Of a stretch of 32,000 bases of DNA, positions 1 to 32,000 are shown piece after piece (the first letter of the stretch is position 1; every line of letters starts with the position of its first letter). Source of the stretch: Candidatus Saccharimonadota bacterium (GTDB lineage: Bacteria; Patescibacteriota; Gracilibacteria; Absconditabacterales; Absconditicoccaceae); contig JAUIDC010000001.1 in the NCBI GenBank assembly GCA_030429145.1, forward strand, positions 840,001-872,000. Direction: 5' to 3'. Made by a program: the position numbers and the translations under genes. The notes beneath the pieces are model-generated. The model did no database searches. It saw only the letters and a list, made by a program, of their open reading frames with translations, and was not told the origin of the DNA.

Positions 1-227
1 ACAATGAACTTTTGCATGGCGAGATAAAATATTGTCCGCAGGATAGTACACTTCTGAAAAGACGTACTGATGATATGTCTATGGAGGCGATTCAGGCAAG
101 ATTTGATGCCTTCTATAAGGAGACAAAACCTATCCTCGATGAGTATAAAACTGAAGGTAGACTCATAGAAATCAATGGTCAGCAACCTGTAGAGGCTGTT
201 ACGCTCGAAATACTCTCACACCTGTAG
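1..227 (+). CDS. adk: Adenylate kinase, C-terminal fragment (5' end cut by the window edge)
   Basis: Frame 3 is open from the window edge. The sequence ...LHGEIKYCPQDSTLLKRRTDD...RFDAFYKETKPILDEYKTEGRLIEINGQQPVEAV resembles the LID and C-terminal helix region of adenylate kinases. TAG stop at 225-227. Confidence 0.75.
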   Translation, partial: NELLHGEIKYCPQDSTLLKRRTDDMSMEAIQARFDAFYKETKPILDEYKTEGRLIEINGQQPVEAVTLEILSHL

Positions 228-279
228 TATTGAAAAACGCTTAGGGATTCTTATAACTGATAGCATAGTTTATGTCATA

Positions 280-969
280 ATGTTATCAGTCATGCAAAGT
301 TATATGCCGCAAATCGATCCAAGAGATTTATGCTCCGCGCTGAGACTATGCAGTGTCAGACAGTACGGAGACAAATACTACGTTGCCGTCAAGAGACTCG
401 ATGGCAGCATGACTGAGATACCATTTGACGAGATAGCGAATGCAGACAGCTATGAAGGCAAAACAATTAAGAGAATTTACGGCTCATGACATGTCTTCTT
501 CAATGAAGACCGCACAAAGATATTCTTAGTGACTGTAGAAAAAGGTGACAATAAACAGGTGCAATTTACTGGAGGCTCTCCTTTGGAAGAGACTCACCAA
601 CAGGTGGTATATAAGATAGGAAGAGAGGTGAAATTTTACCTTTCGAAGGTAGAAGAAAATGCAATTGCTCGTACAAAAAACAGAACGGGTGTCGAAGTGA
701 TTGATCACTATAACGAAACTCCTCTCGTTGACTGGGCATTGATGGAAAGCACTGATGATGAGGGCAATAGCTACTGGAAACTCGTCTGCCTCCTTCATTA
801 TATCGTGAAGAAATCTTCAGGGAGACTGAAGGCACAAAAAGGCATGGAAAATGTGACTGAAGGAGGACGATACGATGTTGATGCAATTCTTTCATGAAGA
901 ATCCCACATATCGCACCCAATGCTAAACTCATCGTGATGAAATCATTTGAAGTAATGATGGGTGGATAA
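280..969 (+). CDS. Hypothetical protein (229 aa when TGA is read as Gly)
   Basis: Track ORFs 280-489 and 529-897 are in the same frame and are joined by TGA at 487-489. A second TGA at 895-897 is read through to TAA at 967-969. No recognisable domain. Confidence 0.5.
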
Positions 970-1007
970 AAGTAAGTATATTTATTTATTGAATGAGATA
1001 ATCTCAT

Positions 1008-2441
1008 ATGAGTGAACAAAGATTTGGACTGGATAATATCGTAGCATGGGCTAAAAGAAAATGATTTGTCTATCCAGGATCTGATATATACGGCGGCCTC
1101 GCTAATGCATGGGATTACGGTCCATATGGTTCACGGCTCAAGAAAAACATCTCTGATGCTCGATGGAAGTTTTTCGTCACAGAAAGAGATGACATGGTAG
1201 CTTTTGATACAGCTATCCTTGCTCATCCACAAACATGGGTTGCCAGTGGTCATGTTGGTACATTTGGTGATTTTCTTATAGATGACAAAAAGACCGGCCA
1301 GAGATTTAGACCTGATAAGTTAATTGAGGATCATATTGCTGTCCATGGAGTTACAAGAGAACAAGTAAAAGAAAAATATGGCGTGGATAATCTTATTCCC
1401 GAGTCTTGGGGTGCAGAAAAAATGCATGAGTATATTATCAAGGAAGGGATTAAAAATCCTGATGCTAAAAAAGATGCTGACTGGACACAAATTAGAAAGT
1501 TCAATCTGATGCTAGAAACTCACTTAGGTGTAATAGCTGATGAGTCTTCTAGAGTCTATCTTCGTCCTGAGACATGTCAGTCACTCTTTACCAATTTTAG
1601 AAATCTTTGTGATACGACGAGAGTGCGCATACCATTTGGTATGGCACAGATTGGTAAATCATTTAGAAATGAGATTACTCCCGGACAGTTTCTCTATAGA
1701 ACAAGAGAGTTTGATCAGATGGAAATTGAGTATTTTGTAGAAAATAAAGAAGAAAAAGCACAAGAGGCATTTGACATGTGGAAGGACCTTTCGATGCACT
1801 TCTGGAAAAATATTGTACAATTGAAAGATGATAATCTTCGTTTCCGTGAACATGAACAAGACGAGCTTTCACACTACTCTCGCGGTACATTTGATGTAGA
1901 GTATAACTATCCATGGGGATGGGGTGAGCTACAAGGTATTGCAAACAGAGGTGACTTTGATCTCACGCAACATCAAAAAACATCAGGGAAAGATCTACAA
2001 TACAAAGATCCTTATACAGGAGAAAGGTATTTACCGTATGTTATCGAGCCGTCTTTTGGTTTGTCTCGTACTGTCATGGCGGTTATGTTGGATTGTTACG
2101 ATGAAGAAGAGGTAAAAGAAGGAGATAAGCGTGTGGTAGTAAGATTTCCATTTGCTATAGCACCAGTGAAGTACGCTATCTTCCCGTTGATGGAAAAAGA
2201 TGAAAAAATGGCAGGAATTGCGAAAGATATCTCGAAGAATCTCAGAAAACAAGGAATTAATGTAGAATACGATGGCGGTGGAAATATAGGAAAGAGATAT
2301 AGAAGACAAGATGAGATTGGTACACCGTACTGTATCACTGTTGACCATCAAACATTGGAAGATAACACAGTGACTATTAGACATAGAGATAGCATGGAAC
2401 AAGAGAGAATTGCAATAGATCAGATTAGTAGTTTTCAATAA
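1008..2441 (+). CDS. glyQS: Glycine--tRNA ligase, homodimeric class II type
   Basis: ATG at 1008 is in frame with track ORF 1194-2441. The N-terminus reads MSEQRFGLDNIVAWAKRK[TGA]FVYPGSDIYGGLANAWDYGPYG, and the TGA at 1062-1064 sits where GlyRS homologs have RGFVFPGS. The rest is a typical GlyRS catalytic core and anticodon-binding domain. TAA stop. Confidence 0.9.
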
Positions 2442-2470
2442 AAATTATTCTTTATGCATTTATCGTGCAC

Positions 2471-3487: not shown

Positions 3488-3515
3488 CGTTAGTCGATCG
3501 GTTTAATTCATATTG

Positions 3516-3547
3516 ATATGCTATTTTTGACAAATAGCATATTTTTG
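3516..3547 (+). terminator. Rho-independent terminator after 2471-3487
   Basis: Perfect 11-bp inverted repeat ATATGCTATTT (3516-3526) / AAATAGCATAT (3532-3542), with a 5-nt loop and a following T5 run. Confidence 0.6.
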
Positions 3548-3554
3548 ATATAAT
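3527..3554 (+). promoter_or_regulatory. Sigma70-type promoter for 3599-4081
   Basis: TTGACA (3527-3532), a 16-nt spacer, then TGaTATAAT (extended -10, hexamer 3549-3554). The -35 element lies in the loop of the upstream terminator hairpin. Confidence 0.5.
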
Positions 3555-3598
3555 TTTATTATAAGATTTGGAGAATTTTATTTTCTATATGTTCTCTC

Positions 3599-4081: not shown

Positions 4082-4100
4082 AAACTTTCCCAAGTGAACA

Positions 4101-4133: not shown

Positions 4134-4150
4134 CTCTATAATAGTACTAT

Positions 4151-6902: not shown

Positions 6903-7283
6903 TTATGATTCACTCGACTTATTTTCTTTTTTCTCTGTCGGTTTTTGCTTAATAGCTTTTATCAATCCCGATAGCATTTTTGCTATATCAAGTGCTTCAT
7001 TGTAGAACTCAGTAAAGGTGTTTTCATCGATATAATCAAGCTCTTTTGCAACGTACAGCATGCTGCGTAGTTGCGCAGAGTCTTGTCTTGCCTGACTTAG
7101 ATACGCTGTATTCTCTTTGATACTTTTTCCATGCCCTACGGCGATGTGTGTCCCTATAGAGAGACACGGAGCACATATAAGCTCTCTCATCAGCAAATCA
7201 TCGATGCTTGAGAAGTGCTGATAGAGATTGATGCTCAAATCCTTTGCCTTTTGTCGGCAGTGAAGTTCTTCAAATGTTTTCAT
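6903..7283 (-). CDS. Four-helix-bundle protein (23S rRNA intervening-sequence protein / Avd-like family)
   Basis: MKTFEELHCRQKAKDLSINLYQ...CAPCLSIGTHIAVGHGK...YLSQARQDSAQLRSMLYVAKELDYIDENTFTEFYNEALDIAKMLSGLIKAIK follows the family pattern (F.dL.vWqkA..L...iy, a.SI..NIAEG, ArgS..E......a..l.yi). No in-frame TGA. TAA stop. Confidence 0.75.
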   Translation of the reverse strand: MKTFEELHCRQKAKDLSINLYQHFSSIDDLLMRELICAPCLSIGTHIAVGHGKSIKENTAYLSQARQDSAQLRSMLYVAKELDYIDENTFTEFYNEALDIAKMLSGLIKAIKQKPTEKKENKSSES

Positions 7284-7644: not shown

Positions 7645-7672
7645 TTGACTTTCGTCTTTAAGATGCTATAAT
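7645..7672 (+). promoter_or_regulatory. Sigma70-type promoter for 7701-8108
   Basis: TTGACT (7645-7650), a 16-nt spacer, then TGcTATAAT (hexamer 7667-7672). Confidence 0.55.
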
Positions 7673-7700: not shown

Positions 7701-8108
7701 ATGGCAACAACAAACCAAAGTACACAAAGACGAGATGAAATCTTAAAAGCTATCACAGAGTATTTCCCTCAGCCGTTTAAGAGCAATGAAGAGAAACGCT
7801 TTTTCCCAGAACATGATGCCTTTGATCACGTAGAGCTTGCTGGAATTTCTGACTTTCAGGAAGTAATGCTCGTTGCTCACCCAGACTATGAGCTTCCCAG
7901 CAAAGACCTTGTCATAGCATGGGACGGGATAAGTGAAGACCACGTGGGTATTGTCTCCGTAAAAATTACTTCTCCTTCACAAGAGAAGACAGTCATCATC
8001 AAATATGATAATGCTGCTGACGACATTATAGTGGAAGGAGTCGAGCCCGAACTAGCAGAACTCGTCAAAAAATATTTATTCTGCAGAGCTAAAGGACACA
8101 TTGATTGA
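7701..8108 (+). CDS. Hypothetical acidic protein (135 aa if TGA at 8106-8108 acts as the end)
   Basis: Intact ORF with no internal TGA, a consensus promoter upstream, and a canonical terminator 18 nt downstream. Its only nearby stop is TGA. Under table 25 the frame stays open to TAA at 8307-8309 (see findings). Confidence 0.5.
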   Translation: MATTNQSTQRRDEILKAITEYFPQPFKSNEEKRFFPEHDAFDHVELAGISDFQEVMLVAHPDYELPSKDLVIAWDGISEDHVGIVSVKITSPSQEKTVIIKYDNAADDIIVEGVEPELAELVKKYLFCRAKGHID

Positions 8109-8125
8109 GAACTATGTAAAACATT

Positions 8126-8149
8126 GCCGGTGGATAAACCGGCTTTTTT
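8126..8149 (+). terminator. Rho-independent terminator
   Basis: GCCGGT (8126-8131), loop GGATAA, ACCGGC (8138-8143), then T6. Confidence 0.7.
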
Positions 8150-8180
8150 ATTATATAAATACACTATACAGATCTTTATA

Positions 8181-8208
8181 TTGACTTATCTACATAAATA
8201 CATAAAGT
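8181..8208 (+). promoter_or_regulatory. Possible promoter for 8239-8580
   Basis: TTGACT (8181-8186), a 16-nt spacer, then TAAAGT (8203-8208). The architecture matches the 7645 and 9254 promoters but the -10 is weaker. Confidence 0.35.
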
Positions 8209-8238
8209 CTATGCTACTAAATCAAATACGCAATACGC

Positions 8239-8580
8239 ATGGAACTGAAACTATATACATTAAAAAATGGAGATACTATTCTTCTCCATCGAAAACGAAA
8301 CAATGGTAAATACCAGATTGGTATGCATGCCATAAACTTGAACTCTCCTCATTTGAGGATCAAGACCTACAACAATAGTCGTCTCTCTAATGAAGTCATC
8401 ATTCATGAGACAGACGCAAGAAACATACTCAACGCTCATTTACAAACTGACTTCTATCAAGGCGTACATGTAGCAGGCAAGCATACTTCTACCGAACAGA
8501 CAAAAAAGCGGTTGGAACAAGTCTGTAAATTACTGGATATGAAATATGTAGAGCCGAAAGTAAAAGAAGCTATTGCCTAA
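8239..8580 (+). CDS. Hypothetical protein (113 aa)
   Basis: Intact ORF from ATG to TAA with no in-frame TGA. No recognisable motif. Confidence 0.5.
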   Translation: MELKLYTLKNGDTILLHRKRNNGKYQIGMHAINLNSPHLRIKTYNNSRLSNEVIIHETDARNILNAHLQTDFYQGVHVAGKHTSTEQTKKRLEQVCKLLDMKYVEPKVKEAIA

Positions 8581-10535: not shown

Positions 10536-11804
10536 ATGAAATTTTCGATTCTTGCTTGCTTACTATCTCTTGTTTTCGTATGAGCTGCTTTCGCTCATCC
10601 AGGGAATACCGCTTCCGATGGATGTCATTATTGTAGAACTAATTGTGATAAACGATGAGTACCTTGGAATCAAAGACATTGTCATGGTGGTTCTTCTTTT
10701 CCTTCAAGCTCTTACCCGAGCTATACTCCAAGTTATACCCCTCCCTCTTACACAACGCCAACCATATATAAAACTCCTACCGAAGAGTGCCAAGAAGAAT
10801 ATTGAATAAATGCCACCGTAGGAACTACTAGCAACACATGTAAATGTAAAGAATGATATAAGTGGGCTACATATGGAGATTATTGTGAACTCAAAACATC
10901 TTTCAATACATGTGAAGATCGAATTAATTGATATTTATGAACAGATTGAGAATGTTATTGCAACACATGATATGAGTGGAGCACTTCTCAAAATAAATGT
11001 ATAAGATCTCAGACTGATCAAGAACGCTGTATAGAACTCTATGGAATTAATAGTTATAGTAGTAATGATGGCATGTGCAGATGCCAAACAGGATATACAT
11101 TTAATTCCAAACATACTACATTATGATGTATATCTGCAAGTCTATCTTGTCAATTAAGCTTTTCTGACCCAAACGTTTATAGTGACTGAATACCAAATAC
11201 CGATGGAAGATATAGCTGCTATTGTAAAGAATGATATCAAAGGGATAACCAGTGAAAATGTACTTTAAATTCTACATCTACAATACACAATAATGAGCTA
11301 GAAGATGCCATTCAACGAATGTATAAAAATGGTCTTACAAGCTATGATTCTATAGAATGATTTATGCCTTTCAATAATATCACAAGGGAACAGGCATCTA
11401 AATTTTTCGTATGATTGAACCAATTCATACTAGCTATAAAATGAGGATCTAAAGAAACAAATGAAAATAAGTGCGTATTTAGTGACATTAGTAATGCTGA
11501 TAGAACTTTAATTAGTTATATTAGCAAAGCATGTGATAGTTGAATAATAATTTGAAGTAAATGAAAATTTAACCCCAATGGAAAATTAACTAAGGCACAA
11601 GCATTAACAATTCTTATTAGAATTATCAATGGGAAAATGGATGAAAGTTGAGAGATATGGTTCGAAAAATACTATCACTCTGCTGCCAATAAAGGATTGC
11701 TAGACAAACTAGATTACCACCTATTGGACCTAGATAGGGAAGATATAAATAGAGGTGACATGGCGAAACTTATTTACAGAACATATTTATATACAACTAA
11801 ATAA
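10536..11804 (+). CDS. Secreted cell-surface protein: signal peptide, Cys/His-rich N-terminal motif, Tyr/Ser/Thr/Pro linker, four CxCxxGY Cys repeats, C-terminal SLH domains (422 aa)
   Basis: Absent from the ORF track because it has 19 in-frame TGAs (hand count). With TGA as Gly it is a single frame from ATG at 10536 to TAA at 11802-11804. It begins MKFSILACLLSLVFV[G]AAFA. Next come HPGNTASDGCHYCRTNCDKR[G]VPWNQRHCHGG and then SSFPSSSYPSYTPSYTPPSYTTPTIYKTPT. Repeats such as CKCKE[G]YKW and CYCNT[G]YEW follow. The SLH-like C-terminus reads FSDISNADRTLISYISKACDS[G]III[G]SK[G]KFNPNGKLTKAQALTILIRII. Confidence 0.8.
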
Positions 11805-11822
11805 ATCATTTAAGGAAAATTT

Positions 11823-12959
11823 TTATACTCTCTTCACAGCCTCACTAACCACCTCAGCTATCCCCTCTTCCAATGGTGAAGGAATAACACTTTCAGGATT
11901 CAAATCTTTGACTGCATCAGCTAATGCTTCAGCGGCAGCTATGAAGTGATCTTGCGTAAGATTTTGAATTTTTCATTCTAACGCTCCTTTGAAAACACCA
12001 GGAAATACTAAGACATTATTAACTTGATTTGGATAATCTGAGCGACCAGTTGCCACGATGTAAGCGCCTCATTCTTTGGCTTCTTCGGGCATAATTTCGG
12101 GAGTTGGGTTGGACATAGCGAAGACGATAGGTTTGTCGGCCATCTTTTGGATATCGGTTCTGTCGAGGACATCAGGCTGGCTGACTCCGATGAAGACGTC
12201 TGCTCATGGGAGGACATCTTTGAGAGATCATTGAGCATTGTTGAGATTGTATGGGATGATTTGATCTTTGTATTCATTACTGTTTCCACGTCACTCATAG
12301 AGTGCTCATTTGCTGTCAACGAGAACGATGTGTTTGACTCATCGAGCAATGAGAAGCTTTGCGATAGCTATCGCTGCCGCTCATGCGCCAGACATGACGA
12401 TTTTGATTTGTTCTTTGTCCTTGTTCACAAGTTTGAGAGAGTTTTGTAATGCAGCGAGTACGACAATAGCTGTACCGTGTTGATCGTCATGAAAGACTGG
12501 GATGTCGAGACGTTTTTTGAGTTGCTCTTCGATATAGAAACAGTTTGGCGCTTTGATATCTTCAAGATTGATGCCACCAAATGTCGGTGCAAGATTTTCG
12601 ACTATAGAAATAATTTCGTCAGGGTCTTGCGTCTTGAGTACAAGTGGCACCGCATTGACTCCACCAAACGTTTTGAAAAGGAGTGCTTTTCACTCCATGA
12701 CCGGTAGTCCTGCCATAGCCCCAATATTACCAAGACCCAGAACTGCACTTCCGTCGGAGATAACTGCGATAGTATTTCCTTTTCGAGTATAGTCATATGC
12801 TTTCTCTGGATCTGCTTCGATAGCTTTACATGGCTCTGCCACGCCAGGAGAGTAGAAAATAGAGAGATCTTCTCTCGTTTTTGCTGATGCTTTGGTGGTA
12901 ATTTCTATCTTTCCTTTGAGCTTTTCATGTGCTTCAAGTGATGCTTTTTTGTAGTCCAT
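11823..12959 (-). CDS. NAD(P)-dependent malic enzyme, short form (378 aa)
   Basis: A single frame with 9 in-frame TGAs (hand count). It contains ...[11 protein letters not shown]...[23 protein letters not shown][G][10 protein letters not shown]...[15 protein letters not shown]...IVMSGA[G]AAAIA..., the hallmark malic-enzyme motifs. TAA stop at 11823-11825. Confidence 0.9.
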
Positions 12960-13057
12960 ATATGAGATATTTTATAAGCTAAACCAACCGTTTACTTATA
13001 TGCATATGCACAAAGAGTACAAGTTGAAAGTCAGTAGGGAATCACTATGCTGACAGC

Positions 13058-14407
13058 ATGCAAGAGATACACACAGCAACAGAAGACACCGCAGGAAGCG
13101 AACCGATACTGTTTCCTGAGGAGCCACTGAAAAAAAAACTGATCCGCAACAGCTTTTGGTTGTATTTTTTCTCGTTTATCGTCGCCCCAACTGGGTATAT
13201 TATTAAGGTAATCGCTTCGCGTGAACTCTCGGTTGAGGATATTGGTATATTCTATTCGGTACTGGGAATTATTAGTCTGATTTCTACGTACAATGACCTC
13301 GGTCTGACCGAATCTATGCAATACTTTTTGCCACACTACCTGATCGACAAGAACTTCAAGAAAGCAAAGTCGATGCTTCAGTTTACGTTGGTGTCTCAGC
13401 TGATCAGTAGTGCACTTATTATCGTAGCACTCCTCTTTCTGGCACCTTGGCTGGCAACTCACTACTTTCAATCACCACTGGCACTCCCACTTCTCCAACT
13501 ATTCTGTATCTACTTCCTCATCATCAATACTTTTCAAATGATTCAGTCGCTCTTTATCGCGACACAAAAAGTAAAGCGGTCACAAGGTATTGAATGAGTG
13601 AGAATGTGGACAATAGTTCTTTTTGTCTTTCTTGGTTGGCAGTTAGATATCTTTAGTCTCAATCTGTTTATGTCATATCGGTTGATCGGACTGGCTCTTG
13701 CGACGATAGTTGGAGTGATCGCTGCCCGAAAGCACTTTTGATGGCTGAGCAAATACAAGAGTGAAATAGACCGAGCATCGATCAAGAAACGATTTGGCTA
13801 CGCATTCTGGGTGATCATTGGGACGAATGCGACGATACTTTTGACACAGATAGACCAACAATTTGCGCTTTATTTCTTTGGCGCAGAAAGTGCCGGATAT
13901 CGAACAAACTACCTCACCCTCTTTAACAGCATGGCAGTTATCTGCACGCCACTGATAGGATATCTTTTCCCACTGCTCAACGAGCTCAATAAGAAAAATG
14001 AGAGAACAAAGATAAGACTACTCAATCGTGCACTCTATGCTGGATTTTTCGCTATCGGTTTGGTGCTTGGGGTAGTTGCATACTTCTGGGGACCTGAGAT
14101 TGCGGTGCTACTCTTTGGAGAGAAGTTTAGATTTTCATGAGAGCTCTTTATCGTGAGTGCACCATTTCTTTGGCTTGTTCCTATCATGGGTATCCAGTTC
14201 CAAAACCTTGCCAGTCATGGTATGGTGAAACAAAGAGTTGGTGTGTTACTCCTCGGTGTTGCAGTAAACTGTGTTGTCAGCATCGTGCTTATGCGTGCTA
14301 TTGGTATCACTGGTATCATCTACGGTACTGCTGCTGGACAAGCTTCTGCTATCATCGCATCATTTATCATCCAACATATCCATCGTCGTCGTCATGCTTC
14401 AGTATAA
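13058..14407 (+). CDS. Polysaccharide/oligosaccharide flippase, MOP (Wzx-like) family (449 aa)
   Basis: Track ORFs 13058-13597, 13811-14140 and 14153-14407 are in the same frame, joined via TGA at 13595, 13739 and 14138. The protein is polytopic and hydrophobic with a typical Wzx-like profile. TAA stop. Confidence 0.7.
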
Positions 14408-15701
14408 TATCGTCACAGGAAAAAACGGAACAGTAAGGCGGTCAAACCGACAAAGTTTTTTGGATAGAGCGATACAAACTGAGTGAGACGAGAAAATAAG
14501 TCTGCTTATGCTCTGCTACAATCATATCGATCAGTTCTTTACTGCGCTAGATAGAGTAGATAGAGAACCAAGACGCAAAAATTTTGTTATCACTATCGTA
14601 CAAAATTCTGATCAGGACGATGCGAAAAAAGCTTTTGAAGAAAGAATTTCAAGTTATAAAAATATCAATGTCCTCTACCCTAAGCACAATCTTGGTTCTG
14701 CATGAGGCTATGCGCTCGGACAAGAGTATATTCTCAGCAGATGATATTCGCACCTCATCATGCTTGAGGATGATGTTGACCTCTATGACGATGATACTAT
14801 CTCAGCGACTATTGATGCCATAGAACACGACAAACAGGTACTTTTCATCAACGCTCCAGTAAATACTGATGGCGACCATTCTCGATACGTCCAATACGCC
14901 TGCTACCCTACTTCCCTCCTCGGACAGGCTGGTATTATCGATCCAAGATTTTACTTTAGAGCAGAAGATCTAGAATGGAGAGTAAGAGTAGAGAACGCGA
15001 TCAAAACCTATCACTATACAAAAACTATCGTTGAGAGAAACTATTTTCATCCTTATCTTAAAGGAGCGAACAATAGCGGCTCACGAATCTACTTCTCCCT
15101 CAGAAACCAACTATGGATGTTCCACAAACACCGCCAATGATTTTTGCAATTTTCTCTCATACTGGCACAGTACATTGCATATGGATTTCTTACCTTTCTT
15201 AGGAGTGGAAAACTCCTGATAGTAGCGTGTATCTGGCATGCTATCATTGATGGAACAGGTAAGTATAAACCGTTGGAGTATCATGGAGAGATGATAAGAT
15301 ATTTTTGAGAGTTTAAAAAAGTGATGGTGAAGGATATTGGATTTAAGTCGAAAGAGGTATGATTTGAAGCGCTAGAAGAGTGAATGAATATAAGAAATAT
15401 CATTGCGAGAACCTCGCTTGCATGATGAGATAGAGTGCATCTTTCAGCCTATTCGGGGTCGCTGGTGACGAGTGGTTGACTTCAGCCCGTATGGATGAAC
15501 TTCATTGCATGTCTGCAAAAACTTCTGGTGATTGAACATCTCAATCGACACAAGAAAGAACTGCAGGGAAAGATATTATCACAGTGAATCTTCTCGCAGT
15601 TGATTAATATATTATTGTTTTTGCCGTGTGTATTGCTATGATTAGCATCATCACTCGTAGCATCTCTGCGGATTTTATGCTCTACGCTCTTGAGAAAATA
15701 G
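14394..15701 (+). CDS. Family 2 glycosyltransferase (rhamnosyltransferase-like core) with an uncharacterised C-terminal third
   Basis: Frame 0 is open from ATG at 14394 (a 14-nt overlap with the flippase) to TAG at 15699-15701. Motifs include ISLLMLCYNH, NLGSA[G]GYALGQ...[G]YSHLIMLEDDV and YFSLRN. About 12 in-frame TGAs. The start (14394, 14460 or 14508) and the status of the last ~130 codons are uncertain. Confidence 0.6.
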
Positions 15702-16502
15702 ATGAGAAACATATCACAGTTTTTTACAAAACAGACATTGTCCTATCTGCTCTATTTGCCGAGAGTTTTCACGACGATCAAGCATCCAGTAGGATTTTTG
15801 AAATCATATATCACGGGAGGTCTGAGTATTGATACTATCTGTCTTAGAAGATGACAAAAATACAACATCGCAAATTTTGATGATCTCGGAGTGTTCTATG
15901 AGATCTTTATCAAGCGTGAATATGGGAAGATTCCACAGTGAAAAATTACTGTCGTGGATATCGGTGCGAATAATGGACTCTTTACTCTCTACTGTAAGTG
16001 GCAGAATCCGCAAGCGACCATCCACTGCTATGAGCCAATTCCTGCATGTGCGGAGCATATTCGTCAGATGGCTAAGGACAATGGTCGGGATGATATCCAT
16101 GTGCATGAAGCAGCGGTAGCTGATCAGAGCGGAGAGCAACAGCTCTATCTCAACGAGCAAATCACTGTCGCTGCTTCCCTCTACCAGGCAGTAGCAGGTG
16201 CTGAGTATGCTATTAACATCAAGACTACGAGTTTTGCTGACCTGCTGAGTGAAGACAATATAGAGACTATAGACTTTCTCAAAGTCGACTGTGAGGGTGG
16301 AGAGTACAGCATCTTTTCGGATATCTCTGCGGAGACCCTCGATCGCTGTAAGTATATCGCTATCGAATACCATGATATAGACGAACAAAAAACGGGCAAG
16401 AAACTATTCAACTATCTACATAGGCTTGTCGGAGAAAAAAGACGTGTTCTTTTTCACCCGCACCCTGCACACCCACACAATGGATTTATTACTATCAAAT
16501 AA
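15702..16502 (+). CDS. FkbM-family methyltransferase (266 aa)
   Basis: ATG lies directly after the upstream TAG. The sequence ...FDDLGVFYEIFIKREYGKIPQ[G]KITVVDIGANNGLFTLY...IHCYEPIP...IDFLKVDCEGGEYSIF...IAIEYH follows the FkbM pattern. In-frame TGAs at 15852 and 15939. Confidence 0.8.
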
Positions 16503-16515: not shown

Positions 16516-17682
16516 ATGAAAAAAGTAAGATTTCTCTTCTACTCATGAGACGGCATCTTCAAAAACGATCATGTTTTTAAGGAACATGGAGCTATTATTG
16601 ATTATTTCAACAGACATGGCTACGATGCAAAGATGGTCTGTATTGACCATGGTGTGACTGTCAATGCACACGATGTCATCAACAAGAAAGTAGAGGTCAA
16701 ATATCTCAAAGATAAAAAGATGTTTCTATGAGTTTCTCTTGGTATCCTCTCCTATCTTTTCTCTCTTAAAAAACTTCACATCCTTATACTCACGCACTTT
16801 TCACCAAAAACATTTCTCTACGCTCTCTGGTATAGATTATTCAACCACGGCTGAAAGGTATATGTCAAAGCTGACTTTGATGCAGAGCGATTTAAAAATA
16901 ACGATCATGGATTTCTCAAAACCTCATTCGCTCCGCTCAGACGACTGGAGAAACTCCTAGTAAGATGGTTTACCTCCCTCGTTGACCTTATTAGCATAGA
17001 GACAAAGGAGTGAGAAAAACTACTGAAAGAGTACTCATCGGCATTTCACCAGAAACTTGCTTATATCCCCAATGGCTTTGACGAAGCATTTATCGATGAT
17101 CATGATCTTCGTCCGGGCTTCGAGAAGAAAACAAATAGCATCGTAACTATAGGCAGAGTCTGAACCTACCAAAAGAATACAGAGAAACTACTCGACATCC
17201 TGAAACAGGTCGATATGAAAGACCGAAAAGCATATATTATCGGCACGATAGATCCTACTTTTCAAGAGACCATAGATATCTACTTTGAGCATTTTCCTCA
17301 TCTGCGTGAAAAGATTGTTTTCACCTGACCTATCTACGATAGAACAAAACTGTTTCACTATCTCCAAGAGGCAAAAATCTACCTTTGCACTTCAAGATTT
17401 GAGTGATTTAGCCTCGTCTTCCCAGAGCTTCTTTCGCAAGGCTGCTATCTCATAAGCACACCGGTATCAGGGGTGCAAGACATTACTGATCATGAAAGAC
17501 TCGGAAGTATCCTTGAAAATACAGAAGAGTTTGTACATACTCTACAGTGATATATTAGTGAAAACAGCTACTCAAAAGAATTATTTCATGACATAGTAGA
17601 CTATGCGTATAGTCACTTTGCATGGGAAAAGCATCTACAAAGACTAGAAAATTTACTCTGTGGTGATACGAGATGAAAATAA
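16516..17682 (+). CDS. Family 4 (GT-B) glycosyltransferase (388 aa)
   Basis: No ORF in the track (9 in-frame TGAs). The frame was verified by hand from ATG at 16516 to TAA at 17680-17682. EX7E motif: SRFE[G, 17404-17406]FSLVFPE. Confidence 0.75.
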
Positions 17683-18707
17683 GTGATAAGGATAATCCGT
17701 TGTATATAAAAGCCTGTAAAAGAGAGTCTCTTTTTCGAACAGGTGCTGACGACTATGCCAATATAAAGATTCCCCAAAGGGTCAAAGAGTTTGAAAATCT
17801 GCAAAAAACAGGAGATCGTCAGCAAGACGAATTCGCTTTTTTACATTCTCTTGGAACGTTTCCACGTGGGTTATCCCTCGGTTCGTGAGGTGGAAGTTAT
17901 GAGTTGAAGCTACTACAAGAGTGAATAGTAGACCATTTTGTCTTTATTGATATTAGTGAACAAGCCCTCGAGACCCTGCAGAACAATGCTAAAAAACTTG
18001 GCCTCAGTGAGAAGATTGAAACGCGTGTACAAGATTTTAACTTTCTGGATCTCCCTGCAAATAGCTATGATCTCGTGAGCTGTCAAAACATGCTTCATCA
18101 TATCATCAATCTCGAAGAGTGTTTGCACGAGATCAACCAGTCATTAACTCCTGAGGGCATCTTTGTTACCAATGAGTGTATTGGGGAAAACAAGATGTAC
18201 TGGTCTGATGCAAAGATGAGCTTCGTAAAAACCTTTCAGACTGCACTTGCTGAAAAAGGTATAGAAAGCAATGAATATATTAGAACGAGTCCTACAGTTC
18301 TGACAAATAACTGCCCTTTTGAATGTATTAGAAGTGCTGAGCTCTACGATATTATCCAGCACTATTTTGGCGAGACAAAAGTAAAAGAGAATGCATATGG
18401 TCACCTCTGGCATGCACGAAATGCATTGAGTGATAATAGGTCTGATACCTATTTTGCACTACTAGAAACATTCGACAAATTTGTCAGAGAAGAGAAACTT
18501 CTGAGACCCAATCTCCTGTTTGGTATCTACAAAAAATCTCAGAAGCCACTACTAGAAACCAATAGCTGGTCTACAAGTGAGATGAAAAAACAGATCGGCG
18601 TAAGCAGATTCAGCGAACAAGCACTCATGCAACGATGAACGAAGACACAACAAAAACTACCAGGTCTCTATAAGTTTTTAAAACGTCTTTACTTCAAACT
18701 AAGATAA
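17673..18707 (+). CDS. Class I SAM-dependent methyltransferase (344 aa)
   Basis: Track ORFs 17673-17888 and 18075-18638 are in the same frame. Motif I reads LSLGS[G]GGSYE, followed by VFIDIS and DLVSCQNMLHHI. TGAs at 17886, 17922 and 18636. TAA at 18705-18707 overlaps the next ATG (TAATG). Confidence 0.75.
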
Positions 18708-19495
18708 TGAAACCTCAAGTATCGATAGTGATTCTCAACTACAATACACCCGAACTAACAACCGCATGTGTGCAGTCTCTCATTGCACATACAGCAGAGA
18801 TTTCCTATGAGATCATCGTGGTGGAGAACGGATCGAAGCCAGCTAGTAGAGAGTACTTTGAGCAATATCTTACTGACCTTCCATATGTGCATGCCGTCTA
18901 CTCAGAAAACAATCTTGGTTTTGGCTGAGGTAATAATTTTGGCTACAAGCACGCTGAATGAGACTATATTTTCTTTTTAAATAGTGATACCATCATTTGA
19001 GAAAATTCGATCAAAATTCTCTACGATCACTATACAAATTTAGAAAAAACAACGAAAGTATGATTTCTTGCACCAAGACTCTACTACGACCATGAGTTGA
19101 CCAAAAAACAGATGTTCGGCACGAAAGCACCTACGTTTTGAGACGTTTTACTCTACAATATTCCAGGCCTTAAAAACATTTGGAAGAAGAGATATGACCA
19201 ATTTCGCTATGCTGACCGAGACAGAGATAGCGACAAAGAGATCGGTAATGCAGGTGGCCCAGCATTTATGTGTTCAAGAAAATGCTTTGATGACATAGGA
19301 AGGTTTGATGAAAGATTTTTTCTCTACATGGAAGAGTTTGATACAGCCATGAGGCTACATAAAAAATGATATCACAGTTTCTTCACTGCAAAGACAAGCA
19401 TCGTTCATCTCGAAGATCAATCCCCAAAGATAAAACGAAAAAAGCTGAAGATTTCACTCTCCAGCATGTGTAAGTTTTTTTGGAAGTATTTGTAG
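18707..19495 (+). CDS. Family 2 glycosyltransferase (262 aa)
   Basis: Contains MKPQVSIVILNYNTPELT...IIVVENGS...NLGFG[G]GNNFG...IFFLNSD...GPAFMCSRKCFDDIGRFDERFFLYMEEFD. Six in-frame TGAs. TAG stop at 19493-19495. Confidence 0.8.
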
Positions 19496-21674: not shown

Positions 21675-22727
21675 TTAACGCACAAAAGGTAAAGTTTTCT
21701 GTAGTACTTCCTCTACTTCTATCCTATCCATCTCATCTCCTGCACATGCTGCAAAGCTTCCATATGCATCATAGCACTCAATATCCATCTTTCGAATTCG
21801 TTCTCCTGGGTATTTTTCGGTGCTAGTCAAATGCGGATACAGTCTTGCAGGATTAGTCGGCCCAGCAAGAGCAACCACAGGCACGCCAGCTACTGCACCA
21901 AAGTGCATAAATCAGCTCTCCTGACAGATAAGCACATCTGTCTTTGAGATAGCCGCAATAGTCTCTTTGAGTGAAAACTTCCTTGTCAGGTCGTGATAGC
22001 CTACGCGTTTCACCGTCAGTCTTCTATCCGATGGGCCACCGAAAGCGACCACATCATATCATTTATCGAGAAGTTCTGTGATAAGCTTTTCCCACTTCTC
22101 CAGTGGTCGCCATCTGCAGTCAGCTGTTCCATGGATACTTTTTGAGAGCTGATTGCCTCAGCCGAGAGCGATACCTATTTTTTTCCTTCGCTGAAAGCGG
22201 GTTTCTTTAAATGTCTGGTTTACCTTATCGCTCTGGGTCAGTGTGTACTCATAGCGCTGATCGTCCATATCGGGCTTGATACCAAGAAACTCACCGAGCG
22301 CCAGATAGTGTTCTACCTCTCTTCACTCTTTGTCTCGATAGTTCTTGTGTGTGAGGAACTTGCCGTCTTTTCCGAGTCTGTCGAGCCCGACTCTTTTTTT
22401 GAAACCTGCGAGCTTTGCGAGCAGGCCAAAGATTCGGTGCCTGTCCAATACCACTATCGTCTTATAGTGATAGTGATGTCTCATATGACGAAGTTGCAGC
22501 ACAAGCTGTATCATACGAAATATATTTCCTATCGTCTTCTTCTCAAAAATACTTTCATCAAAAACAGCGACCTCATTGATGGTCTTGTTTCCCTGCAATA
22601 TCACGGATGCTCTTTTTCCAACAAAATACCCTACTCTTGCTCCTGACTGTTTCACTTGTCTGACAAGCGGTGTTGTCATCAGCACATCTCCTATCGCTCC
22701 AATCTTGAAAAACAATATACTCTGCAT
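21675..22727 (-). CDS. Family 9 glycosyltransferase (ADP-heptose:acceptor heptosyltransferase-like, 350 aa)
   Basis: Track ORFs 22323-22742 and 21675-21908 are in the same frame, and no TAA or TAG lies between them (checked by hand). The sequence reads MQSILFFKIGAIGDVLMTTPLVRQVK..., then IGIALG[G]GN..., AFGGPSD..., and finally LICQES[G]FMHFGAVAGVPVVALAGPTNP. This is the GT9 pattern. Four in-frame TGAs. Confidence 0.8.
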
Positions 22728-22729
22728 AC

Positions 22730-23896
22730 CTACTTTGATCAATTATGTAAGAGTTTCTTATATACTGATAACACCAGCTGAATGCAATCCTCTCGTTTGA
22801 AAATCTTCTCTGGGATAGATTTGACGTCTGCATCGCCCTTAAAAAATGCTATAATCTTCTCAGATATCTCCCTTGGGCTTCCTGGCTCGACAAAGACTAT
22901 TTCTCCTGATACCACCTCAGGGATAGCAGCCACATTGGTTGTCATCAGAGGTTTCTTCATCGCACAGACCTCAGCAATAGCCAGTCCAAATCACTCTGCA
23001 TGTGATGGAAGACAAACAAGATCAGCCGTAGCAATCCATTTTTTCAATGTTTCTCCTCTTGCACCTGGTATCCACGTGATCTGCTCATTGTATCTTGCAA
23101 GTATCTCCTTATAGTCTTGTTCATCTACAGTCGAACGAATAAGTCCTGCTTTCTTCTTTGTATCTTGTGGCACGATAAGGACAAAATGAGCATCCTTATC
23201 AGCATCAGCCACAGCTGGGATAGCCTGTATCAGATCATCCAATCCTTTTGCCACTCATGGTCTACCAAAAAAGAGCACGATGTTTTTACCTTCCAATTTG
23301 TATTCCTTTCTTAGCTCTCCATTATCACTCATAGGTTTCCAGTGGTCATAGTCGATCGCATTGTAGACGGTCAAAAGTTTCTTATCGTCTATGCCATAGA
23401 CTATTCTTAAATTGTTCTTCGTGTAGTGTGATACACAAAGGTATTTATCAAAACGGAATCGTGTAAAAATGATATGCTCAAGAACAATTGAAAGATGTCC
23501 AAGCTTTCCAAGGAAACGATACCAGAGCTGTCCATATATCTCATGGACGTGAAGCACTGTCGGTAAGCCAGTAAATTTCTTTAGAATACCTGCTGGGATA
23601 GCGGCCATAAAAGTCGTTGCATGCACAATATCAACATGCTCACGCTTACAGATATCAAGAGCTTTTCTTAGCCCATATCGCATAAAGTCAAATCTCCCAT
23701 GCCCTACCCTATGGATAGTACAGTTCTCTGCATAGTCCTCTTTCTTTGCAAGTGACTGGTCATAACGTGACGTCACTATGGTCACTTTATGTCACTCAGC
23801 GAGTATGCCTTCGACGATTTTTGCGAAAAGTGTCTCGACACCACCGATGTGAGGATGAAAATATTCGAGGATAAAGAGGATATGTCTTTTATGCAT
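22730..23896 (-). CDS. Family 4 (GT-B) glycosyltransferase (388 aa)
   Basis: Three track ORFs plus an N-terminal extension share one frame. The sequence runs MHKRHILFILEYFHPHIGGVETLF...GRP[G]VAKGLDDLI...PSHAE[G, 22991-22993]FGLAIAEVCAMKKP. It ends ...LHN[G]SK then TAG at 22730-22732. Confidence 0.8.
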
Positions 23897-24623
23897 GATG
23901 ATGTTTTTTACCGCGATATCGATAAACAAAGAGTGTTTTGATGGCGTACCAACCATCCTTTAGCTTAATTTTCTTCCCATGCTTCTGTTTTCTTGGATAG
24001 TAGTGAATAGGCACCTCTCCATAGGTGTAACTTTGTCTCAGGAGCATTATAGTGACTGCCGGCTCCCATGCAAAGTCATTTTCTTTTGGATAGAGCAAGA
24101 TGTTTCTACACGAGTTATGATACATCTTATAACAGGTTGGTTCATCTGTCACCTTTCTTCCTACAAGGAGTGACGTAAGTAGCGAAACCACCAGTCAACC
24201 AAAGAGAAAGCCTACTGTTGAATAGTTCATACCGTAGTGTTTATAGCCACGTGTTCTTGAACCATAGCAAATATCCCACTGTTTTTCTTCCATAGTCTCT
24301 AGCATTCTCTCGAGATCTTTTGGCTCATACTCAAGATCAGCATCCTGTATCACATACACATCACCTGAAGCATGAAGCACTCCCTGCTTGATACTGTACC
24401 CCTTTCCATGGTTCTTATGATGGAGATATTTCACCTTACCCGTATAGACCTTCAAAAAAGTCTGGATAATATCATCACTTTTGTCTTTACTTCCATCATT
24501 CACGATAATAATCTCTTTTTCATAACCGATATGCGAAAAATCTAGGAGGGCAACCTTCTGCAGGAGCTGTCCGACAAATATTTCCTCATTGTAGACCGGT
24601 ATGATGATGGAGATTATCTTCAT
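23889..24623 (-). CDS. Family 2 glycosyltransferase, polyprenyl-phosphate sugar synthase type (GtrB/DPM1-like, 244 aa)
   Basis: Contains MKIISIIIPVYNEE...IIIVNDGSKD...NHGKGYSIKQG...VIQDADLEYEP. TGA at 24195-24197 joins it to the C-terminal piece. TAA stop at 23889-23891. Confidence 0.75.
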
Positions 24624-25066: not shown

Positions 25067-26515
25067 TTAGTCGTGATGTTCTTTTGCGAGGGGAAAGAGC
25101 AATGCCATCGGAGCAAAGAAGATGACCAGCACCATGGTAAATACTCTATTTACTGTGGTTTGATCAAGGACAAACTTGTAGTTTTCCGTCACGAGGAAGA
25201 CAAGTAAGAAGATACCAAGGATAACGACAGGAGCTAAGATGAGAAAAAGTTTCTCTCTATCCATATGCTTTCTTCTAAAGAAAGCTCGAATAAGCATCAT
25301 CAGGAACAATACTGGTGCTACAGAATAATTATTGAGATCCCATATCGTATTCCAGATGGCTGGAAAGATCTCCCAGTGCACTGAAGCTGCTAGTCCAAGT
25401 CATGCATCAGCTCCTGCTGCTTGATTGAATCCAAGATTATAGTATGATTTGAGGAAGGTAAACGGTGCGATGAAAAAGAGAATGAGTGCTATAATGTATA
25501 TCCGTGTCGAAAGTTTTGAAAAGATATGAAGTTTTTCTTTTGTCTTCTTTCGGTGGATAAGAGAGTAGAGAATAAGTGCTATAAGCACGCCACTCATATA
25601 GACCACAAAGCCGTCATTTTTGACATAGGAGAGGATACTGAGAAACGCGATACCAAGGACAAACTCACTTGCATGTCCATCCTTCTGGAGCCGATCGTAG
25701 AATGCCATTACAGCAAGGGCCGTATAGGTAGCAGAAAGAAGATCCATATAGCCTTGTGTCGTATGCATAAAGAGTAACGGCAAGGAAATGATAACAGCTG
25801 GACCAATAAGTGCTGCTATAAGATTTTTCTTTTTCTGGTAGATCCATGTTGCAATGAGTCCGAGGAAGAAGAGTACAGACAGCCATGGGAAGAGATTGAT
25901 ATAGATATCATTGTAGCCGCCTATGAGATTCGCAATGAACGCTTGCATAGCAGGGATCATAATCGGATATCCAAGTCTTCCTCTACCAAGTATCTCAGAG
26001 GTATCTCCAAAGATATGTACTCCTCCATCGTAGAGGATATTCATGACAGGCATGTGCCAGTTACCAAATGCGTCATCTGCATACGAAGGCAAATTGGTTA
26101 CGAAGATGAAGGCAGTAACGAGGAAGGTTAACAGGAAGAGAATAAGGACAATAGCAATAGCCTTATGTCAATTGCTCATCTGTTTTCGACTTTTGATTTT
26201 TCGCTGAAGGGAGAGCGTTTTCCAAAGATCCTTTCGTTTGAGTGATGTAGCAAGAACTCTCACGACGAGTACTAGTAGCAAAAATGCTATAAGGATAGCA
26301 TATGCTGCTCGATCTATACCATAGCGAACAAACTGGAGAAGAAAGAGTCCATAGCTGAGCACTCCAACGCCGACAAATCGACTTGTCAGGTAGAAAAGCC
26401 AACTACGTAGACGACCTCCCATGATGATCCACGTTGCAATGACTCCTATCACGAGCGGAAAGAGAATATATGAAGCAAGATGACTAAGCATCAGACTACT
26501 AGAAAGTGCAAACAT
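25067..26515 (-). CDS. Polytopic membrane protein, GT-C (ArnT/PMT-like) glycosyltransferase candidate (482 aa)
   Basis: Track ORFs 26168-26515, 25400-26092 and 25067-25381 are in one frame, joined by two TGAs. There are 10 or more hydrophobic segments, and an acidic YADDAFGNW motif follows an early TM helix. The gene sits next to the GtrA and GtrB-like genes. Confidence 0.5.
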
Positions 26516-28442: not shown

Positions 28443-28479
28443 CGTCTATCTCTCACTATCTTGAACTAAAATGCTGATC

Positions 28480-29022: not shown

Positions 29023-29040
29023 AAGGCGTTGATAGTGCTA

Positions 29041-30174
29041 CTATTTAAAGAATACCTTCTTATAGATCATCTCTACAAGTATCTTGATCGCATTGCCATT
29101 TTTCTGTCATTTGGAAAGACTGTACTCGGTATATTTAATATGCACCGGCACCTCTTTATATGCAATCTTATTTCTTCTAATGCAATCAAGCAGTTCAGAC
29201 GCATAGGTCATACCATCTGAGCTCAAGGTTATTTTACTGAGAGTACTAACATGGAGTGCTCTGTAGCCGTTGTGCGGATCGCTGACACGGAGTCTATTGA
29301 AAATCAGCGTCACTAATTTTGACCCCCACAGCACAATCTTTCTTCCTACAGGCATATTTTCCGCTTCGCCTCCCTTGATAAATCTTGAACCAAGAAACGC
29401 TTTCACTGAAGAGTGTGCCTGAATATATGAGTGGAATACATCCATATCAGCAATATCCATCTGCCCATCTGCATCAAAAGTCACAACCCATGAGATAGCA
29501 AGACGGTCATAATTACTCTGAAGAAATGAGAGGCCTGTCTTATTTGCGGCACCTCCTCCTCTATTTATTGCGTGAGAAAGAAGCAATATCGTTACATTAT
29601 CTTCATATTTTTCTATCAATCATTTTACCTGTTCATAGGTATTGTCCGTACTACCATCGTTTACTACAACTATCTTCTTATAGCCTGCGGCTACGATCTC
29701 ATCGATCGTGTTTGCTATCGTCTTTCACTCATTGTATGCTCTGATCAGAAAACAGTACGCATCTTTTTCGCTGTCACTCGTAGGCGTAATAGTTCCTTCT
29801 CTCTGCTGCAGTGCAAGAGCTGAAACAAGTCTCGTAGAGTGGAACTTTTGCTTCGTGAGCTCATTGAGCATCTCAAAGTAGAAGTATCCAAGAACAATGA
29901 GTGCACCATAGACGATAATATCAGCGACTCTTGCCACACCAAACACCTCTGCAAACGACTCTTGAAATCCAGGATAGAAAATACTAAGTAGTACAAGTGC
30001 TGTACCACCAACAAAGATGAGAAAGTGGATGAAATTGAGCCTTCTTCTTTGCAGTCCATCGATGGCAAAGAGCAAAAAGAGGATACTCGCTATGATCAGG
30101 ATAAAGCTCAAAGGACTCATGTACAAAAATGAGAAAACACATATAAATAAGGATATATGTTGGTTTTTACTCAT
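29041..30174 (-). CDS. Fusion of an N-terminal DUF2304-like membrane domain with a family 2 glycosyltransferase (377 aa)
   Basis: Track ORFs 29725-30174 and 29107-29619 are in the same frame and are joined by TGAs at 29725 and 29620, with a third at 29107. The N-terminal ~110 aa contain 3-4 TM helices followed by LVSALALQQ, resembling DUF2304. The rest reads ...IVVVNDGSTDNT...FDADGQ...DPHNGYRA (GT2). TAG stop at 29041-29043. Confidence 0.7.
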
Positions 30175-30201
30175 TTATAAGGCAATTGCAACGAAAAGGG
30201 A

Positions 30202-31383
30202 TTAGTTCTTTTTCGTTATTTTTGCAGAAAATATTTGGTCGTAGACTTGGATATCTATCTCGTCACCTGGCTCCAGTTTTTGTACATTGTCTTTCGACAA
30301 GTATGCTCCTTGCTGCATGAGCAATGCATAGCCACTTTGTAGTATCTTTGTAGGAGAGCTCGCCACGATCGTATGATACCACGCATCGATCTGGACTCTT
30401 GTGTGTTGCAGTAGCCCTTTTGCAGCCCTTACTATCTGTCACTGCCAGAGATCTATGTTATCTCTCATACGTATCAGTTTCTCTGTGCTGAGCGTGATGA
30501 TACTATCATAGAGCACAGTAATATTTTCTTCCCACTCTTCAAGGAGTTCAGTCAACTTATATGCAGCATCTGTAGGTGTTTTTGCTCCATACCAAGCGAT
30601 GTCCTGTAAGACAGTTTTATCTTGAGTATGGCCTACAGCAACGATGACCGGCACAGGCATCAGACAGATCATTTTTGCTATCTCGAAATCATTCTGCCAG
30701 GCCATCCCGCTACTCTCTCCTCCTCCACGAATGATCGCTACAGCGCTAAATTGTTCACCATCTTTTATATCTGTCATAATAGTAGTTAACTGTTCCTGGA
30801 CCTCTGCAATAGCATTGTTCCCGTGCATGGCACAGAGATACTCTTTGTATTCAATATTATAGCCAGATTGTGCTGCAATAGTGTAAAAATCCTTTAGTCA
30901 TGCAGCATCTTGCGCCGATATGATAGCGATCTTGTATGGTGGATATGTTCGTGAAAGATATTTATTGTTATAGATTATTTGTAGTTTTTGTAATTTTTGG
31001 AGAATATCCTCTTGTTTTTTTTGCAAATGGCCGAGTGTGTACTCTGCGCTGAGTTCATTGATGATAATGCTTATCCCATAGTCTTTATGAAACGAAAACT
31101 TCCCGTAAAAGAGCACCTTTAAGCCTGTCATCTCTGAAACGTCTCTCAGTTTTGTCTCACGAAGAAACTGTGCATAGATACTCTCTTGAAAGATACACCC
31201 CTTCACCTTCGCAACGATTTTTCCCTCCTCGTCGTACTCCACGAGCTCCGCATAGACATTTTTGCCTTTTTGCTGTATCTTTAAAATCTCTGCTCTTCAC
31301 CAAAAATCAAAGCCTCAAACAACAGCCTTGAAACTTCTGTCCAATATATCGAGCAACGCCGAAAGCGAGTATTGCATTTCCAT
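30202..31383 (-). CDS. xseA: Exodeoxyribonuclease VII large subunit (393 aa)
   Basis: ATG at 31381-31383 is in frame with track ORFs 30898-31242 and 30439-30828. The sequence runs MEMQYSLSALLDILDRSFKAVV[G]GFDFW[G]RAEILKIQQKGKNVYAELVE... (OB fold), then ...IAIISAQDAA[G]LKDF...IIRGGGE...AVGHTQDKTVLQDIA. Four in-frame TGAs. TAA stop at 30202-30204. Confidence 0.8.
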
Positions 31384-31395
31384 AATTGTAGTATA

Positions 31396-31418
31396 CAAAA
31401 AAGTGACTGCAAAGCCAC
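31396..31418 (-). terminator. Weak terminator after the pilin gene
   Basis: The minus-strand RNA reads GUGGC, loop UUUGCA, GUCAC (5 bp with one G-U pair), then U6, running directly into the xseA -10 box. Confidence 0.3.
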
Positions 31419-31433
31419 CTTTTTGTTTTTCTC

Positions 31434-31988
31434 TTATTGATTTTTTACATTTGGGGAGAGATCGTAGATAGATCATGAGTATGGTCCGCACCAGTCATTG
31501 GTATCGTTGAGAAATTTTCGTCACTGCACAGCACACCTGTCGGGGTCGTTTGGGTTTTCGAGTTTTGTTAACAGATCATAGGTATGTTTCGGTGAATTAT
31601 AGACTCCATAATAGGTGTATGTTCTAGTTGTTGCTCCAAATGCTACACCACCAGGAGTGTTGATCGGATCGACAGGCACAGAAGTCATATAGCCACTTAT
31701 AAACGCTGACCAACCAGTACTTGTACTATATGTATAGTGATTGGTATTGTAACTAGCTCATGCATATGGTAGCGGATATGTCGTGTTATCAACAAAGTAT
31801 ATCTCTAACGCATTATAGATATTTCTCAGATCAGTTTTTCTTTTTGTATCCCTTGCTCTCTCCTGCACAGATGTCAGTCTTGGAACAAGAGCTGCAGCTA
31901 AAATACCGATAATCACTATGACTATCAGCATTTCGATGAGTGTAAATGTTTTTTTTCTTTGCAAAAAAGTGCAGATATTATCTTTCAT
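31434..31988 (-). CDS. Type IV pilin / pseudopilin-like protein with a prepilin-type N-terminal domain (184 aa)
   Basis: Begins MKDNICTFLQRKKTFTLIEMLIVIVIIGILAAALVP (class III signal and hydrophobic helix). Track ORF 31758-31988 continues through three TGAs to TAA at 31434-31436. A C-terminal Cys pair (DRCAVQ...NDWCG) fits a pilin disulfide loop. Confidence 0.75.
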
Positions 31989-32000
31989 TAATTCTCTTTC

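Follow-up and report, generated by a model that had tools for sequence, protein, structure and literature searches.

The window analysed here is a stretch of 32,000 nucleotides (1-32000; positions 840,001 to 872,000 of contig JAUIDC010000001.1, assembly GCA_030429145.1), and its subject is the genetic code in which its genes are written. The window very probably belongs to an uncultured bacterium of the SR1/Absconditabacterales lineage that reads UGA as glycine, CGA as tryptophan and CGG probably as tryptophan, and that stops translation at UAA and UAG only. Arginine would then be written with AGA, AGG, CGU and CGC only. Under this code, the window holds 30 main gene models and two additional small ones. 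An earlier sequence-only reading, made by a model from the letters and their open reading frames, had assigned the window to NCBI translation table 25. Two elements of that proposal stood (UGA as glycine, and UAA and UAG as the only stops), but the standard meaning that table 25 leaves to the remaining codons did not, as CGA is tryptophan-like and CGG does not behave as arginine.

The GC content of the window is approximately 40%. Under the standard bacterial code (table 11), open frames of 100 codons or more number 60 and cover 28.8 kb. Open-frame coverage rises to 61 kb when TGA is read as sense, a gain far larger than the one obtained with TAA or TAG as sense. With TGA as sense, the main gene models are tightly packed and 91% of the window is coding. 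These 30 models have 9722 codons, with 112 TGA (about 110 in the earlier hand count), 49 CGA, 13 CGG and 105 TGG codons in frame, and 28 of them harbour at least one TGA. In-frame TAA and TAG codons are absent from the models, compared to 363 TAA and 339 TAG when the same genes are read in their two other frames. All of the models end in TAA (24 genes) or TAG (6 genes) and none of them requires a frameshift, which agrees with the earlier statement that the genes are split by TGA and by nothing else. The number of pieces per gene had been underestimated: it ranges from 2 to 20 under the standard code, and not from 2 to 12, with 19 TGAs in g10 and 12 in g13. The eight TGA codons named in the sequence-only reading (starting at 1062, 8106, 12381, 12690, 17404, 17886, 18926 and 22991) are all in frame and have the contexts given for them.

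Pfam searches in which TGA was masked as X returned full-length matches spanning the TGA positions. The matched products are glycyl-tRNA synthetase (GlyRS), a ClpC-like ATPase, malic enzyme, a Wzx-type flippase, FkbM and SAM methyltransferases, glycosyltransferases of the GT2 (five), GT4 (two) and GT9 (one) families, GtrA, a PfkB kinase, GmhA, XseA and a pilin. In the malic enzyme, the domains cover residues 16-148 and 162-360 and span nine TGAs. The same pattern of sense TGA codons was present in five related genomes.

The amino acid encoded by TGA was analysed column by column, as the sequence-only reading had proposed. The GlyRS gene (g02, 1008-2441, forward strand; class II alpha2 type, PF00587 and PF03129) has one TGA, one CGA and one CGG, and was compared with the genes of 74 standard-code genomes. 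Its TGA (1062-1064) falls on a column that is glycine in 73 of the 74 and alanine in the other. The malic enzyme gene (g11, 11823-12959, reverse strand) has nine TGAs, including 12690-12692 (GLPVME-G-KALLFK) and 12381-12383 (Rossmann motif SGA-G-AAAIA). Against five solved standard-code homologues from the PDB, the nine positions give 45 cells, with 29 Gly, 0 Trp and 16 other residues, and the two motif positions are Gly in all five structures. The orthologue in L082, a syntenic 21 kb locus from Logan, has TGA or GGA at all nine positions. Directly upstream of the window, the same contig carries an SHMT gene with eight TGAs, six of which correspond to Gly in Thermus SHMT.

Codon-level alignments were built between the window genes and their orthologues at seven loci of relatives (L082, a second malic enzyme locus and five GlyRS loci), and pairs were counted in both directions. 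TGA was paired with GGN 72 times, with TGA 42 times, with Ala 7 times, with Ser 6 times and with Trp (TGG) once; it was never aligned with Cys. In a BLOSUM-based likelihood, Gly exceeded Trp by 88 log10 units and the next best amino acid by 54. Composition points in the same direction: with TGA as Gly, the proteins have 6.7% Gly and 1.1% Trp, while with TGA as Trp they would have 2.2% Trp. Moreover, in 120 malic enzymes from the clade, the Trp introduced by table 4 gene calling trades one-for-one with Gly, and the sum of both residues stays at approximately 30-34 per protein. A reading of TGA as glycine in the window is strongly supported by these alignments.

The earlier proposal that the TGAs fall on invariant glycines of known motifs did not hold for the EX7E motif of the GT4 glycosyltransferases, whose column is Gly or Ser, usually Gly, and not invariant (Ser in the one distinct solved GT4 homologue, represented by PDB sequences 2jjm and 3mbo). 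The TGA in motif I of the SAM methyltransferase g16 (17886-17888, forward strand) corresponds to GGA in the L082 orthologue, and that of the GT2 enzyme g17 (18926-18928, forward strand; NLGFG-x-GNNFG) corresponds to GGT. Of the two EX7E codons, the one in g15 (17404-17406, forward strand; context RFE-x-FSLVFPE) lies in a gene without an L082 orthologue and its reading as Gly follows from the general result, while the one in g21 (22991-22993, reverse strand) has the context described earlier and is Ser in the PDB homologue BshA.

The first sign of a shift in CGA was a pairing between Trp and Arg far in excess in the codon-level alignments. The CGA codons of the window were paired in relatives with TGG 13 times, CGA 10 times, CGG twice and a true Arg codon once; a further 19 pairs joined CGA in the relatives to TGG in the window, giving 32 CGA-TGG pairs against one pair of CGA with a true Arg codon. 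The codons CGT, CGC, AGA and AGG interchange with each other and with Lys, and AGA is the dominant true Arg codon (220 of 337). A screen of all codons flagged TGA, CGA, CGG and TGG only.

The single CGA of GlyRS (1161-1163, forward strand) stands where each of the 72 aligned standard-code proteins has Trp, and the five closest relatives have TGG or CGR at this position. In 194 conserved GlyRS columns, AGA was on Arg in 14 of 15 cases and CGT in 3 of 3, with CGA on Trp and TGA on Gly. Where these five relatives have CGA in GlyRS, the standard-code proteins have columns of Trp, Phe or Tyr. The GT9 heptosyltransferase-like gene g20 (21675-22727, reverse strand) has five CGAs (22335, 22188, 22107, 21798 and 21792), all of which are TGG in the L082 orthologue, even in local contexts that look basic. 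The clade-specific membrane protein gene g24 (25067-26515, reverse strand) has seven CGAs and two CGGs; in an alignment of 38 homologues, its CGA columns are for the most part occupied by W, F, Y or hydrophobic residues. A CGA of the upstream AspRS gene was aligned to Phe in four PDB homologues and to Gly in one. PDB alignments of the upstream radical-SAM gene and of the GT9 gene were too short or too distant to place their CGAs. Judged from these columns, CGA is read as Trp, not as Arg.

CGG is less frequent than CGA and its partners are mixed (Leu, Gln, Trp and CGA). Among its 16 non-self pairs, true Arg codons are absent as partners, compared to 46-67% of the pairs of CGT, CGC and AGG; TGG or CGA is the partner in 8 of the 16. 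The two CGG columns of g24 are aromatic or rich in Trp in the 38 homologues (F17/W10/Y10/R1 and L10/W9/I6/V5/F3). In GlyRS, the CGG (1134-1136, forward strand) lies in a variable column (Glu 65, Gln 4, Ala 3 and Leu 2), where the relatives have Leu, Gln or Met, and is uninformative. The alignment counts indicate that CGG is not an Arg codon; it is probably a Trp codon, on a small sample.

In the proposed mechanism, which follows the literature on the clade, release factor 2 would be missing and UGA would be read by a tRNA-Gly with the anticodon UCA, and CGA and CGG would be read by a tRNA with the anticodon UCG, possibly together with one with CCG, carrying Trp identity elements. The tRNA-Gly(UCA) of table 25 was defined by G1:C72, C2:G71, G3:C70 and U73; ARAGORN found no tRNA-Gly(UCA) in eight related loci from the clade (L001-L005 and L082-L084), and Rfam gave no match in the window. 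The only tRNA genes in the related loci were a tRNA-Trp(CCA) in L003 (4186-4260) and a tRNA(UCG) in L005 (20226-20299). ARAGORN labels the latter as Arg, yet it has G73, a G1:U72 pair and U20, which correspond to the Trp-identity criteria of Shulgina and Eddy (eLife 2021, 10:e71402, PMC8629427): G73, a base other than A at position 20, and a pair of A1 or G1 with U72. The D-loop of the L005 tRNA, of seven bases, matches that of the tRNA-Trp(CCA) of L003 exactly. In L005 itself, CGA lies on Trp columns.

Several observations weigh against the code proposed here. Three CGAs lie at positions that are basic in relatives (13727, aligned to AGG; 13772, aligned to AAA; and 25550), and the last of these, the g24 codon at 25550-25552, stands in a column with Lys in 22 homologues and Arg in 10. 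From these three sites there may be residual Arg-like usage or ambiguous decoding of CGA. They are either real replacements of Arg or Lys by Trp or a hint of residual Arg decoding; as Arg and Trp are one substitution apart in this code, a few Arg-to-Trp replacements are expected. The evidence on CGA comes largely from within the clade, with GlyRS and AspRS as the support from outside it, and a CGA of the upstream SHMT gene was aligned to Leu and is uninformative. CGG offers few sites as evidence, with five of its partners contributed by the single variable GlyRS column. Finally, ARAGORN detected no tRNA gene either in the window or, through the identical Logan stretches L081 and L085, in the 9.7 kb that precede it.

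One alternative is an intermediate or ambiguous code, in which UGA is fixed as Gly but CGA and CGG are read by competing Arg and Trp tRNAs, or CGG differs from CGA. The three basic columns and the mixed partners of CGG would fit this alternative, as would the complicated history of CGG in the sister Gracilibacteria (PMC8629427). However, the great majority of the CGA sites are Trp-like and CGG has no true Arg partner. In addition, the changes from CGU or CGC to CGA or CGG, and from AGA to CGA, are single mutations, so a few Arg-to-Trp replacements are expected anyway, and we regard an ambiguous code as unlikely. A code with UGA as its only reassigned codon (plain table 25, with CGA and CGG kept as Arg) shares the fully supported reading of TGA. 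It could also draw on the same few basic positions, and on several CGA and CGG codons of the orphan genes g06 and g08 that, in our reading, stand in contexts natural for Arg. If it were correct, approximately half of the non-self partners of CGA should be AGA or CGT, as is the case for CGT, CGC and AGG; the observed ratio of TGG to true Arg partners and the position of CGA 1161 on a Trp column of GlyRS are opposed to this, and plain table 25 is very improbable.

Two further explanations concern TGA itself. Reading it as Trp (table 4, as in Mycoplasma) has an apparent precedent in P0001, a public database copy of g11 with Trp at all nine TGA positions, and many homologues from the clade are recorded likewise, but this reflects the calling pipeline only. 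Trp was found in none of the 45 malic enzyme cells and in none of the 74 GlyRS proteins, 73 of which have Gly; together with the likelihood ratio and the doubled Trp content described above, table 4 is left with hardly any probability, and the column data refute it. Apart from the in-frame TGAs themselves, nothing speaks for genes broken by pseudogenisation, sequencing errors or selenocysteine sites. TAA and TAG are common in the other frames and absent in frame, frameshifts are lacking, Pfam domains run full-length across the TGAs, the related genomes have the same pattern and an identical sequence exists in an independent assembly (the 54 kb Logan contig ERR3428547_5926, which matches 20,388 bases of the window without a difference), making this explanation practically negligible. 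Selenocysteine was rejected in particular: the 112 TGAs are distributed over 28 genes, none of them is on Cys and there is no Rfam match in the window.

The use of TGA for Gly was uneven across genes (chi-square 88.6, 29 df, p = 6e-8). ClpC and GlyRS had 2-3% of their Gly codons as TGA, compared to 30-39% for malic enzyme together with several glycosyltransferases, and 54% for g10. There was no comparable heterogeneity in the share of CGA and CGG among the Trp codons of each gene (p = 0.31). The g10 gene (10536-11804, forward strand) encodes a Cys-rich repeat protein with an SLH domain and has 19 TGAs. Its internal repeat C.C..G-Y occurs four times, with TGA at 10854, 10968 and 11232, and GGA at 11091.

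ATGA start/stop overlaps were observed at two gene junctions, g15/g16 (17673-17682) and g23/g22 (24614-24623). At both of them the upstream gene runs one codon past the TGA to a TAA (ATGAAAATAA and ATGAAGATAA). These TGAs may be relics of former TGA stops or may be due to chance. Three TGAs were seen within the last three codons of genes compared to approximately one expected, a difference that was not significant (Poisson, approximately 0.09).

The sequence-only reading had singled out the TGA at 8106 as the one exception to the rule that genes end in TAA or TAG. This TGA is real and lies just upstream of a terminator-like hairpin. It is the only TGA of g06, an orphan gene on the forward strand that is preceded by a promoter-like site (7645-7672) and extends from 7701 to 8309 if it is read through, and it stands (8106-8108, forward strand) where a stop codon would be expected. 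The hairpin (GCCGGTGGATAAACCGGC), followed by a run of T (8126-8152, forward strand), starts 17 bases past the TGA. Beyond it there is a second promoter-like site (8181-8208) and then a small open reading frame with its own terminator (8239-8580, forward strand), which is extra to the 30 main models. Reading the TGA as Gly would extend g06 by 67 codons of non-coding appearance, through the hairpin and into the next open reading frame. This TGA could reflect a recent loss of a stop by a change from TAA to TGA, a recently arrived standard-code gene, a stretch that is not a gene, or context-dependent termination; the exotic ones among these explanations are unlikely.

The g06 gene belongs to a series of five consecutive small genes at approximately 6.9-10.4 kb: 6903-7283 (reverse strand), g06, the open reading frame at 8239-8580, g08 and g09. 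Four of them are orphans. The remaining gene (6903-7283) encodes a 23S_rRNA_IVP protein of 126 residues (PF05635, E = 3.6e-16), has no TGA and adjoins the ClpC gene, a pairing that is also present in L082. A search for repeats of the kind found in diversity-generating retroelements around the 23S_rRNA_IVP gene gave one weak pair of 33-base repeats only, and no pair of template and variable repeats. A HMMER scan of 1.84 billion representative proteins revealed no homologues of g06, returning only g06 itself as a standard-code call of 135 residues. A chimeric query made of g08, g09 and the open reading frame at 8239-8580 gave no match, not even to its own genes, which may be a failure of the method. 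The block at 7.6-10.4 kb had no match in a phage collection by tblastn or blastn.

There is no internal TGA in the approximately 730 codons of the five small genes, compared to approximately eight expected at the window average, and several of their CGA and CGG codons stand in Arg-like contexts (for example SRYE-CGA-INAE-CGA-QLL). L082, although syntenic, has different genes at the positions of the small genes. The block may have been recently acquired. It is quite unlikely that UGA still terminates in particular contexts, or that the block at approximately 7.6-10.4 kb, just outside which two of the five small genes lie, is recently acquired standard-code DNA. TGA is almost as scarce in the housekeeping genes g02 and g05, which counts against both possibilities.

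The proposed affiliation of the window with an SR1/Gracilibacteria-type clade was borne out by its nearest GlyRS and malic enzyme relatives, which are of the SR1/Absconditabacterales type. The best GlyRS loci come from metagenome-assembled genomes with 59-67% identity, one of them labelled Absconditabacterales, and all of them have sense TGA codons and CGA on Trp columns. Among the matches listed from a search of 185,579 species representatives, GlyRS identity did not exceed 67%. Those malic enzyme relatives that are named belong to Absconditicoccaceae, Absconditabacterales or SR1. CGA and CGG are both missing from the GlyRS gene of a more distant Gracilibacteria relative (L066). Sequence similarity places the organism in the Absconditabacteria/SR1 lineage. 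In L082, two genes absent from the window were observed close to the malic enzyme gene: one after it, encoding a 702-residue protein with a faint reverse-transcriptase match (11266-13374), and one near it, encoding a predicted fusion of a cyclodipeptide synthase and a solute-binding protein (14535-15887).

The combination of UGA as Gly with CGA and CGG as Trp is not new. The reading of CGA and CGG as Trp in Absconditabacteria, beside the previously known reading of UGA as Gly, was published by Shulgina and Eddy (PMC8629427), who explained the joint change of both codons by one tRNA(UCG) that reads them both, and the same code is restated in two 2026 papers (PMC13092985; bioRxiv 10.64898/2026.04.02.715157). 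The window shares TGA as Gly and CGA as Trp with this code, and probably CGG as Trp. The affiliation of its nearest relatives and the occurrence of a tRNA(UCG) with Trp identity in one of them are also in line with it. Codon usage differs, with higher values in the window: it has approximately 50 CGA, 13 CGG and 108 TGG per 10,000 codons, with CGA accounting for approximately 29% of the Trp codons, while no species of the Absconditabacteria analysed in PMC8629427 reached 37 CGA and only one had 7 CGG or more. This comparison is rough, as the published values count Pfam-aligned columns and ours count whole genes in 32 kb only. The GC content of the window is also slightly higher than that of the clades with reassigned CGA and CGG (0.26-0.38; PMC8629427). 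Table 25, the code of SR1 and Gracilibacteria (Campbell et al. 2013 and Rinke et al. 2013, as cited in PMC8629427), has UGA as Gly and UAA and UAG as the sole stops in common with the window but, unlike the window, keeps CGA and CGG as Arg. Table 4 (Mycoplasma/Spiroplasma) has in common a sense UGA in low-GC bacteria with small genomes; UGA is Trp there and Gly in the window, and the relative L003 has an ordinary tRNA-Trp(CCA).

The window matters for practice more than for concepts. Gene calling with the standard code breaks the genes of such contigs apart: the calls on ERR3428547_5926 are fragments, with the malic enzyme in pieces of 89 residues and ClpC split into 661 and 201 residues, in agreement with the earlier warning that a standard-code annotation would be badly wrong. 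Table 4 calling puts Trp on conserved glycines, and profiles built from such proteins would carry false Trp. Table 25 would still place Arg at approximately 62 codons (49 CGA and 13 CGG), including the conserved GlyRS Trp (1161-1163). Profiles, trees and structure predictions for proteins of this clade need a code in which all three codons are changed. The window may also represent a heavier use of the reassigned CGA at a fairly high GC content of 40%; if this applied to the whole genome, it would be relevant to the hypothesis that a very low GC content is required for such reassignments.

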